From IMG/VR virus record IMGVR_UViG_3300047510_002187, positions 31,073 to 95,072 of that record: 64,000 nt of DNA; one strand, 5' to 3'. The position numbers and the translations under genes were made by a program. The notes below the pieces were generated by a model. That model made no database searches, had not been told where the DNA came from, and was given only the letters and a program-made list of their open reading frames with translations. Origin of the DNA: a virus. Below, one piece after another: positions 31,015-32,413 of this stretch (position 1 is the first letter of the stretch; every line of letters begins with the position of its first letter).

Positions 31015-31215
31015 ATGTCTAACAATTCTTCATCTTCTAGTGGTATTGGATTTACTGGTCTTCTCACCATTCTGTTTATTGGTCTGAAACTGACTGGTTA
31101 TATCAATTGGCCTTGGATCTGGGTTCTATCTCCCATTTGGATTAGTGCTCTGATTATTCTTGCCATTCTCGCGGTTCTCCTGGGAATTTACTTCATCAGC
31201 GAACTGAACAAATGA
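31015..31215 (+). CDS. small membrane protein (2 TM, Ser-rich N-terminus)
   Basis: ORF track. Confidence 0.4.
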   Translation: MSNNSSSSSGIGFTGLLTILFIGLKLTGYINWPWIWVLSPIWISALIILAILAVLLGIYFISELNK

Positions 31216-31406
31216 AATCCAAAGGATTTACACTCGTAGAGTTGATGATTGCACTTGCTCTTGCTGGTATTGCATTTAGTCTTCTAGGACTGGCAATTAA
31301 AGGGGAATCTCTTCTTCCATCCAAAGAATCATGTATCTCTCAAGGTGGTAAATGGTCTGAAGGAATTCAGTATGGTCGCTGGACACAACTTTGTACCTAT
31401 AATTGA
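31212..31406 (+). CDS. type IV prepilin-like protein (class III signal peptide)
   Basis: MKSKG/FTLVELMIALALAGIAF: G-FTLVE with Glu at +5 followed by a hydrophobic helix; C-terminal Cys pair. Confidence 0.55.
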   Translation: MKSKGFTLVELMIALALAGIAFSLLGLAIKGESLLPSKESCISQGGKWSEGIQYGRWTQLCTYN

Positions 31407-31411
31407 ATGAT

Positions 31412-31573
31412 ATGATCGTCCGCATCATCGGAGTAGGAGTAGGAATCGCACTCCTACTCTTTATCCTCCTTCTGAGAGGACTTCCCGTACTCTTCTTCCT
31501 GAAGATGCTGCCTCTCGTCTTTCTTCTTTTCGTTGCCATTGCGTTTATCTACGCAGGTTTAACTTCTGATTAA
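31412..31573 (+). CDS. small hydrophobic membrane protein (53 aa)
   Basis: Hand-translated MIVRIIGVGVGIALLLFILLL... Confidence 0.3.
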   Translation: MIVRIIGVGVGIALLLFILLLRGLPVLFFLKMLPLVFLLFVAIAFIYAGLTSD

Positions 31574-31600
31574 TTTTTGTCCTTTATTTAATTATTAACT

Positions 31601-32413
31601 ATGTCTGCTGGTCCTAAAATTGCTCTGGGTGTTGGTGCTGCTGCCCTTGCCCTTATTCTCACTGCTGGTCAATTTACTACGGTCAATACTGGGGAGAATG
31701 GATTATACATCGGATTCGATGGCCAGGTAAAGAATGAGATTATTCAGCCAGGAATCCGATATGATGGATTTGGTTCAATTAAGGTCTTCAACACTCGTAA
31801 AATTACAGTTCAATCAAATGACCTGACCCCTAAAACCAAAGACAACACCATTATGAAAGATATGGATGTTGTTGTTACTTATAGTCTGTCACCCACGAGT
31901 CTCTATGACTTTTATACTGGTTACGACATGAGTAACCATGGAGTCAGTCAAAATGGTCAAATTGAACTAATGTCTAGTTTCATTAAGCGTTTGATTACTT
32001 CTGCGGTGAATCAATCAGTCGATGAATATCCTGCACTGGAAGTAAATTCCAGTCTTGATAAGATCCAAGACACAATCAAGAATAACCTGAATCTGTCTTT
32101 AGAAAAGAACAATCTTGCAGGTAAAATTCAAATTGAATCTGTGGTTGTTGTGAAAGCAGACCTACCCGAAGACTTGGTTGCTGCCGTAAATCGTGTGGTT
32201 GCTGCTCAGAGTGCAAATAAAGAACAGCAAGTTAAAACTCAGACTGCTCAACTCAAGGCAGAGGAAAATAAAGCACTTGCATCTACTGTATCGGCACAAT
32301 CTCTTGAGTACCAGAGAAATGAGATTTTGAAGGCGGCTTTCAATAATGGAAGTATTCAGAAAATCCTAATCGTGAACGGTACTCCTCTTCAGTTTTTCCC
32401 CACTGATAAATAA
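31601..32413 (+). CDS. SPFH/band-7 (prohibitin/HflKC-like) membrane protein
   Basis: N-terminal TM, then a GENGLYIGFDGQV...PGIRYDGFGSIKVFNTRKITV...TKDN..M..DVVVTYSL pattern typical of SPFH domains, plus a coiled-coil C-terminus. Confidence 0.6.
   Translation: MSAGPKIALGVGAAALALILTAGQFTTVNTGENGLYIGFDGQVKNEIIQPGIRYDGFGSIKVFNTRKITVQSNDLTPKTKDNTIMKDMDVVVTYSLSPTSLYDFYTGYDMSNHGVSQNGQIELMSSFIKRLITSAVNQSVDEYPALEVNSSLDKIQDTIKNNLNLSLEKNNLAGKIQIESVVVVKADLPEDLVAAVNRVVAAQSANKEQQVKTQTAQLKAEENKALASTVSAQSLEYQRNEILKAAFNNGSIQKILIVNGTPLQFFPTDK

Follow-up and report, generated by a model that had tools for sequence, protein, structure and literature searches.

A candidate prepilin-type mini-protein encoded in a variable, envelope-protein-rich region of an uncultured T4-like cyanophage

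Organization of the locus

A 64,000-nucleotide stretch of viral DNA (IMG/VR record IMGVR_UViG_3300047510_002187, positions 31,073 to 95,072), referred to below as the window, was analyzed in silico, with the main focus on an open reading frame (ORF; 31212-31406, + strand) of 64 amino acids (aa), whose predicted product we call the mini-prepilin. It belongs to a block of four tightly packed ORFs of the + strand (31015-32413), encoding: (i) tm66, a small membrane protein of 66 aa (31015-31215), (ii) the mini-prepilin, whose ATG overlaps the stop codon of the preceding 66-aa gene (ATGA), (iii) tm53, a membrane protein of 53 aa (31412-31573) and (iv) an SPFH/Band 7 protein of 270 aa (31601-32413), for which hydropathy (hydrophobic segment at residues 2-26) predicts a membrane anchor near the N-terminus, at residues about 5-26. 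Terminator-like structures lie at both edges of the block. The upstream one (30953-30975, +) is a stem-loop followed by UUUAU, with a folding free energy (dG) of -17.4 kcal/mol and a z-score of -3.8 against shuffled sequences; its T-run is short and a simple terminator scan did not call it. The downstream one (32469-32489, +), detected by the scan, is a hairpin followed by a T-run (dG -14.6 kcal/mol, z -4.3). A sequence resembling a T4 late promoter, TATAAATA, is found at 32419-32426 (+), directly after the stop codon of the SPFH gene and ahead of this hairpin.

The window derives from a T4-like phage, as it carries a gene for the gp6 baseplate wedge protein (54655-56577), whose best matches (55-59% amino acid identity) are proteins of Kyanoviridae, i.e., Synechococcus and Prochlorococcus myoviruses. 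A megablast search with 24 kb of the window gave no match to isolate phages, and the phage is uncultured. The closest isolate over the region is Synechococcus phage S-CREM1 (Kyanoviridae), with 74% DNA identity limited to the 53-aa gene and the SPFH gene. A preliminary description of this DNA had named a T4-like phage, two small membrane proteins on either side of a prepilin, and an SPFH (band-7) protein downstream. All of these assignments are borne out by our analysis: besides the affiliation of gp6, both flanking proteins are strongly hydrophobic and ORF 31601-32413 matches PF01145 (Band_7) with 70.4 bits (threshold 23.6).

The prepilin signal and architecture of the 64-aa protein

The 64-aa protein (MKSKGFTLVELMIALALAGIAFSLLGLAIKGESLLPSKESCISQGGKWSEGIQYGRWTQLCTYN) has the N-terminus MKSKG|FTLVELMIALALAGIAF, where the bar marks the predicted cleavage site, and its class III signal with the following helix reads FTLVELMIALALAGIAFSLLGLAI. 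The positively charged leader (MKSKG, residues 1-5) ends with Gly at position -1, and is followed by Phe at +1 (residue 6) and Glu at +5 (residue 10). Both profiles of this signal matched the ORF above their cut-offs: PF07963 (N_methyl) with 33.3 bits (E 3e-8; gathering score 21.2) and TIGR02532 with 29.8 bits (cut-off 16.3). When the six-frame translation of the 64 kb was scanned with the regular expression G-[FMLIVY]-[TS]-L-x-E, the mini-prepilin was the sole match. The unusually small size of the prepilin (64 aa), pointed out in the preliminary description, is confirmed. The class III signal proposed there was recovered with independent profiles, and where a simple transmembrane anchor had been considered as the other possible outcome of such a search, the N_methyl domain was found above its gathering score instead.

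An AlphaFold2 model built with the family alignment (mean predicted local distance difference test, pLDDT, 78) contains a hydrophobic helix at residues 8-29 (the corresponding hydropathy segment covers residues 3-31), a short helix at 38-43, which holds Cys41, and a hairpin at 46-53/56-63, which holds Cys61. An invariant Gly (residue 31) lies between the long helix and a conserved C-terminal head (residues 41-64), which is bracketed by the two Cys residues. When the model was compared by fold with PDB and BFVD, no match had an E-value below 0.6, and the head, as modeled, appears too small to be placed by its fold. The globular alpha-beta domain of pilins (alpha1-C on a four-stranded antiparallel sheet) is missing, since only 34 residues follow the helix, modeled as a six-residue helix and one hairpin. 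A C-terminal Cys pair, as in the D-region-type loop of pilins, is present; it had been pointed out before, and both residues proved invariant in the whole family, which is consistent with a disulfide between them.

Full-length pilin and pseudopilin equivalogs of NCBIfam scored far under all their cut-offs (GspH 24.7 versus 80, GspG 12.2 versus 88.85, GspI 10.4 versus 44.35), because the match is limited to the first ~30 residues, i.e., to the N-terminus. A relationship to Flp/Tad (type IVc) pilins was not found either: the protein carries G|FTLVE in place of the Flp motif G|xxxxEY, and no Flp family occurs among the Pfam hits at E <= 1. The protein has the N-terminal features that define the type IV pilin superfamily, and lacks both the globular domain and a pilin-type genomic context. 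We classify it as a prepilin-type (class III signal) mini-protein, without assigning it to one of the named pilin subfamilies. That its class III signal is genuine and that it has a disulfide-bonded head on the periplasmic side is, in our view, quite probable.

Distribution and conservation of the mini-prepilin family

A search of 5.8 billion proteins yielded 45 homologous clusters (60-77 aa, 56-92% identity), many of which, including the one with an identical protein, bear the Joint Genome Institute (JGI) label 'prepilin-type N-terminal cleavage/methylation domain-containing protein'. In IMG/VR, family members are present on at least 37 contigs. In the alignment of the 45 clusters the following residues are invariant: G5, T7, L8, E10, G31, C41, G45, G46, W48, E50-G55, T58, Q59 and C61. 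Phe at +1 is nearly so, and among the 26 distinct gene sequences G-1, F+1 and E+5 are invariant (26/26). The consensus of the head is C-x3-GGKWSEGIQYGRITQLCTYN, which may also be written C-x3-GGKWSEGIQYGR-x-TQLCTYN. Two residues of the helix, mature G14 (residue G19; 22 of the 26 genes) and I15 (I20; all 26), are kept as in type IVa pilins.

The same 26 genes were used to compare nonsynonymous and synonymous polymorphism (pN and pS). Synonymous diversity is similar across the whole gene (pS about 0.4-0.5), and the pN/pS ratio is 0.09 over GFTLVEL (pS 0.42), 0.95 over helix residues 12-30, 0.50 over the linker and 0.17 over residues 45-64 of the head. This pattern indicates that the cleavage/assembly motif and the tiny head are constrained and that the remainder of the helix needs only to be hydrophobic. 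Judged from the sequences of the family, the 64-aa ORF is a real gene.

A cellular origin of the head was considered and rejected. A pattern scan of one genome for each of 185,579 prokaryotic species retrieved only ordinary long pilins sharing the common N-terminus, and the head was found in no cellular protein. In an exhaustive HMMER search of 1.84 billion representatives, the proteins matching the head were mini-prepilins of 54-89 aa, save two singleton fusions and repeat artefacts. Two singleton metagenomic proteins (P0049 and P0050) carry the head on another N-terminus, which in one is the membrane anchor and in the other the C-terminal part of a lipoprotein, both otherwise encoded near mini-prepilin genes (c4 and c6, see below). 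They could be real recombinants or assembly chimeras; both contigs are shorter than 2 kb.

The family is known from metagenomic contigs alone, and every context inspected was phage-like. This includes more distant members with the pattern C-x3-GG-x-W-[ST]-E-G ... C-[ST]-Y, in which E+5 is kept (e.g., P0054 and P0055). Three such genes (positions 6001-6216 of the extracted loci L127 and L128, and 6001-6225 of L124) adjoin genes for a pentapeptide-repeat protein, DUF3799, NAPRTase and PRPP synthetase, among others, and L127 and L128 each have, in addition, a Band_7 gene 4 kb upstream. The preliminary description had called a phage prepilin unusual, and this view holds in part. A tblastn search of 50,697 phage records detected no cyanophage homologue of the mini-prepilin; on the other hand, the family occurs on dozens of IMG/VR contigs, its signal had already been labeled by JGI, and phage pilins have an experimental precedent (PMC12952977).

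Genomic neighborhood

Clustering of the neighbors of about 40 loci with a mini-prepilin gene revealed that the region is a mosaic rich in envelope proteins. Besides a 272-aa SPFH protein accompanied by the 53-aa protein, the genes recurring near the prepilin encode: (i) a 62-aa two-helix protein (c2), (ii) a 105-aa N-terminally anchored protein (c4), (iii) a 161-aa lipoprotein with an LTGC lipobox (c6), (iv) a 121-aa secreted protein with a signal peptide (c19) and (v) a 134-aa anchored protein (c0; e.g., positions 6813-7217 of locus L038, and loci L130-L209), which matches phrog_11227, labeled 'protease'. The c0 protein, in which an SPFH domain is lacking, consists of a transmembrane helix and a coiled-coil tail like that of prohibitin (PDB 9urz_D, E 2.4e-4). 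It resembles the C-terminal part of phrog_200 and shows no direct pairwise similarity to the SPFH protein of the window. With 352 IMG/VR loci of the same phage lineage, c0 is a common 'headless prohibitin'.

Within the window, tm66 matches phrog_1374 (E 2.5e-17), has one strong and one weaker hydrophobic segment, and shares DNA similarity with phage S-PM2 (annotated 'T4-GC 762') and with Rhodobacter and Desulfovibrio phages. It is located near the prepilin or the SPFH gene in only a few related loci and moves independently of the prepilin. The tm53 protein is almost wholly hydrophobic and shares 70% identity with SCREM1_130 of S-CREM1. Its start codon is most likely the ATG at 31412 (53 aa), as in this homologue, rather than the TTG at 31403, which opens the mechanically predicted ORF of 56 aa. 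The SPFH protein matches phrog_200 (E 2e-24) in addition to Band_7 and is 82% identical to the 'SPFH domain-containing protein' of S-CREM1; its sequence matched no NCBIfam subfamily or solved structure. In almost every one of 56 SPFH loci, as well as in S-CREM1, the gene for tm53 immediately precedes the SPFH gene. The phage pair is reminiscent of bacterial nfeD-SPFH operons, although tm53 has neither an NfeD domain nor any other Pfam match.

The preliminary description had presented the four genes of the block as a membrane-protein cluster; that they form one functional cluster is not sustained by the comparison of loci. An SPFH or c0 gene is found within a few genes of about 90% of the prepilin genes; however, a 272-aa SPFH gene is missing from the surrounding 6 kb in roughly half of the prepilin loci, and the prepilin is present upstream in only 13 of the ~44 SPFH loci with enough upstream DNA (~30%) and in four of the 66 best c0 loci. 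S-CREM1 has kept tm53 and SPFH and lacks the prepilin, and the immediate neighbors of the prepilin vary between loci. On these data, a prepilin-SPFH operon was rejected. The conserved unit is tm53-SPFH, since tm53 is a near-constant companion of the SPFH gene and the prepilin an occasional one; the pair is separate from the prepilin and merely lies in the same variable region, of which the prepilin and tm66 are separately mobile accessory genes. SPFH and c0 are not mutually exclusive alternatives, because the two genes occur together, at a distance of about 17 kb, on IMG/VR contig 3300042924_003079.

No pil, gsp or pilD gene and no second pilin gene was found at the prepilin loci, each of which has a single class III motif within about 6 kb. 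An A24 peptidase was not detected when the window ORFs of 250-290 aa were inspected, and a PADLOC analysis of the four proteins of the block gave no defense-system hit.

Several other genes surround the block. Directly upstream lies a run of larger + strand genes (24900-26855, 27638-28675, 28675-29763 and 29833-30546), whose products include a ThiF/E1-like protein (PF00899, E 4e-8; PADLOC E1-E2 (Cap2-like), E 1e-9, and BilD, 9e-4), a Prok-JAB domain protein (E 3e-5), and two proteins (651 and 362 aa) without a family match; this run may constitute a phage-encoded ubiquitin-like conjugation/deconjugation module. The SPFH gene is separated from the conserved gene that comes next by a homing-endonuclease-like ORF (32533-33198, +; 221 aa; phrog_314, E 9e-9), which is missing at the same spot in one related locus (L004), occurs elsewhere in two others (L011 and L016) and looks like a mobile insertion. 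Further downstream, ORF 33812-34543 (+), kept in related contigs, encodes a nucleotidyltransferase of the CCA-adding/poly(A) polymerase family (PF01743, E 2e-17; PF12627, E 2e-8). ARAGORN detected no tRNA gene across the 64-kb window.

Possible function of the mini-prepilin

We tentatively propose, with a probability of about 0.4, that ORF 31212-31406 encodes a mini pseudopilin which is processed by the host PilD and jams or caps host type IV pili, e.g., for superinfection exclusion. The steps that we infer are as follows. The basic leader MKSKG and the hydrophobic helix would direct insertion into the host cytoplasmic membrane with the N-terminus in, the host prepilin peptidase PilD would cut after Gly5 and methylate the Phe, and the 34-residue tail, with a probable Cys41-Cys61 disulfide, would be exposed on the periplasmic side. 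With the parts needed for entry into pilin assembly retained (mature F1, E5, G14 and I15) and the globular domain absent, the product could act as a defective subunit or plug: the type IV pilus platform or growing pili would take it up, and its conserved head would stop, cap or destabilize them. On an infected cell with fewer working pili, competing phages, or the progeny of the phage itself, would then adsorb less by way of pili.

The main argument for seeing more than a plain anchor in the helix is the invariance of Glu at +5, distant members included. In pilins this buried residue is needed for pilus assembly and methylation, not for cleavage, and it would be disfavored in a plain membrane anchor. 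Its conservation points to contact with other pilins or with the assembly machinery. Pilin mimics of Pseudomonas phages (see below) offer one precedent for the proposal. On the side of the cyanophages, the T4-like S-CAM7, S-PM2 and S-RSM4 bind along the type IV pili of Synechococcus WH7803 and piliated cells are preferentially infected, i.e., pili raise the risk of infection (bioRxiv 10.1101/2025.09.20.677514). The scattered presence of the gene across loci fits a competition or host-range gene.

Several observations weigh against this proposal. Pili are patchy in picocyanobacteria, being encoded in 14.7% of single-amplified genomes (SAGs) and in only some freshwater ecotypes; this patchiness among marine and freshwater picocyanobacteria matches that of the phage gene. 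The distribution of conservation is the reverse of that in classical pilins and in the diverse P-FimU proteins of Pseudomonas phages, with helix residues 12-30 free to vary (pN/pS 0.95) and an exposed head that is nearly invariant; such a constrained head fits a conserved partner, without telling which one. The model cyanophages that bind pili (S-PM2, S-RSM4 and S-CAM7) have no mini-prepilin gene detectable with tblastn, and no pil, gsp or pilD gene accompanies the prepilin. Finally, P0049 and P0050, which may be artefacts given their short contigs (under 2 kb), have the head on another anchor, a hint that activity may reside in the head alone.

An explanation that does not involve pili, which we regard as possible but somewhat less likely, is that the class III signal would serve just to hold a small periplasmic head with a disulfide bond at the inner membrane. 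The head would bind a conserved envelope partner, e.g., the SPFH or prohibitin-tail proteins of the phage, a different phage membrane protein or an envelope protein of the host, and the outcome would be envelope remodeling or lysis timing, in the manner of a periplasmic regulator of the T4 RI type. Class III signals are indeed also used to anchor non-pilus proteins, such as the planctomycete DUF1559 proteins. The head is the most conserved part of the protein, the helix past residue 15 evolves almost neutrally, and the region is full of genes for membrane proteins, lipoproteins and secreted proteins (tm66, c2, c4, c6, c19, tm53, SPFH and c0), with SPFH or c0 at hand in most prepilin loci and the head transferred to other anchors in the rare variants. 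However, a plain anchor does not readily account for the invariant Gly-1, Phe+1 and Glu+5 (pN/pS 0.09), the link with SPFH and c0 is positional (both are common in the lineage, usually without the prepilin, whose immediate neighbors vary), and the anchor-swapped variants are singletons on short contigs. Superinfection exclusion, receptor masking and lysis timing had been suggested as possible roles in the preliminary description; of these, lysis timing is less favored by the pattern of conservation than interference with the pilus machinery. A related idea, in which the mini-prepilin cooperates with phage membrane scaffolds (tm53-SPFH or the prohibitin-tail protein) to reorganize translocon-rich membrane domains of the infected cyanobacterium, and would be a dial on host membrane-protein and photosystem biogenesis instead of on pili, seems very improbable to us. 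Prepilins of Synechocystis are known to gather in domains of this kind, where the Sec-dependent production of photosystem II proteins is throttled by them.

Interference with export could also take place without any entry into the filament, if the mini-prepilin, made in bulk, competed for or inhibited PilD, or accumulated at Sec/YidC translocons and so blocked the export of host pilins and envelope proteins. The strictly conserved cleavage motif and the small gene, whose translational coupling to the upstream gene would allow high output, agree with this, and in Synechocystis without PilD the unprocessed PilA1 prepilin impairs the function of the Sec translocon and membrane-protein synthesis (PMC8546353). 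The harm there is, however, specific to the non-glycosylated PilA1 prepilin and does not follow total prepilin level (PMC8546353). Moreover, a blocked translocon would also impair the insertion of the membrane proteins encoded by the adjoining phage genes, and the conserved periplasmic head with its Cys pair is left unexplained, so that we consider this mechanism improbable. Hardly any credence can be given to a non-functional sequence, whether an ORF arisen by chance or the decaying remnant of a pilin gene captured from a host: the ORF is very short and its similarity to solved pilins is confined to the first ~25 residues, but the existence of 45 clusters and at least 37 viral contigs with constant protein length, the strong purifying selection at a pS of about 0.5, the retention of the head in distant members and the presence of a single such motif in 64 kb effectively refute it.

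If the proposed action on host pili is true, such a cyanophage gene, plugged into the pilus pathway, would give the first indication that these phages manipulate pili from inside the cell, with possible consequences for superinfection and phage-phage competition, as well as for the sinking or grazing fate of infected cells. Type IV pili help marine Synechococcus and other picocyanobacteria to stay afloat and to avoid grazers. A mini-prepilin that collapses pili would deprive infected picocyanobacteria of pilus-dependent flotation and of protection from grazing, and the fate of the virocell would change. Since the patchiness of the gene parallels the patchiness of host pili, the idea is directly testable with existing Synechococcus and cyanophage models. 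The family also offers a compact reagent, a mature protein of 59 residues with an invariant 24-residue head, which could be used to probe the minimum that a pilin needs to enter or poison the pilus machine.

Comparison with known systems

A literature search found no earlier report of a cyanophage-encoded pilin. Among phages of other hosts, the closest parallels are the truncated PilA-like proteins (~60 residues) of six virulent Pseudomonas phages, described in 2026, for which incorporation into pili without phage-binding sites, or inhibition of assembly, has been proposed (PMC12952977). Like the mini-prepilin, they combine the N-terminal helix of a pilin with the absence of the globular domain in a protein of about 60 residues. 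They differ, as far as a comparison by description shows, in being homologous to the host PilA, whereas the mini-prepilin, encoded by T4-like cyanophages, has its own head, bracketed by a probable disulfide and without a cellular homologue. All records retrieved by tblastn with the N-terminus of a PAK-type PilA were from Acinetobacter, a result that probably reflects masking of the helix by the low-complexity filter.

The same study described prophage-encoded mimics of FimU (P-FimU) in F10-like phages of Pseudomonas aeruginosa, which are built into the host pili and block tip-binding phages (PMC12952977). These are also phage-encoded proteins of the type IV pilin family, used against other phages and dependent on host pili. 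P-FimU is, however, a full-length minor pilin of temperate phages, which is highly diverse, replaces a specific host protein and leaves pilus function intact, whereas the mini-prepilin has a third of its size, a nearly invariant head (pN/pS 0.17) and a T4-like, presumably virulent phage as its carrier. The full-length homology to a specific host pilin that characterizes P-FimU and P-PilA was not found for the mini-prepilin, whose cellular matches cover the N-terminal signal and helix only. By analogy, its action may be likened most to that of the truncated phage PilA-like proteins and, more loosely, to that of P-FimU. Small phage inhibitors of type IV pili that are not prepilins also exist, such as PfsE of Pf phage, which is reported to prevent superinfection (PMC8764522); the proposed outcome is the same, and there is no relation in sequence or architecture.

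Short phage proteins with a comparable leader and helix (MKNKG|FTLIELMI) are NVP1081O_058 of Vibrio phage 1.081.O (82 aa; Schizotequatrovirus) and gp97 of Acinetobacter phage Acibel004 (107 aa; annotated 'PilE-like'). Both have short tails with C-terminal Cys pairs and are encoded among small early-type genes of large myoviruses, but their tails are unrelated to that of the mini-prepilin and lack GGKWSEGIQYG, and they belong to other PHROGs of unknown function, matched only N-terminally. The downstream gene of the block finds its counterparts among the SPFH/Band 7 proteins (HflK/C, prohibitin and stomatin), with which the product of ORF 31601-32413 has in common its Band_7 domain and the membrane anchor at the N-terminus.

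Of the proteins with a solved structure, those matching best in sequence (E 5e-6 to 2e-3) are forms of Geobacter PilA-N ('geopilin domain 1'; PDB 2m7g, 6vk9, 7tgg and 9egp), a naturally truncated type IVa pilin whose 61-residue mature form has nearly the same length as the mini-prepilin, with similarity over residues 2-26 only. Geobacter PilA-N is a cellular protein encoded in a pil locus, whereas the mini-prepilin has no partner pilin within 6 kb. Geobacter PilA-N pairs with a separate protein, PilA-C. Phage mimics of pilins are already known, and what appears, at the level of sequence, to set the mini-prepilin apart from them is its lack of a full-length cellular counterpart and the invariant head of its own.

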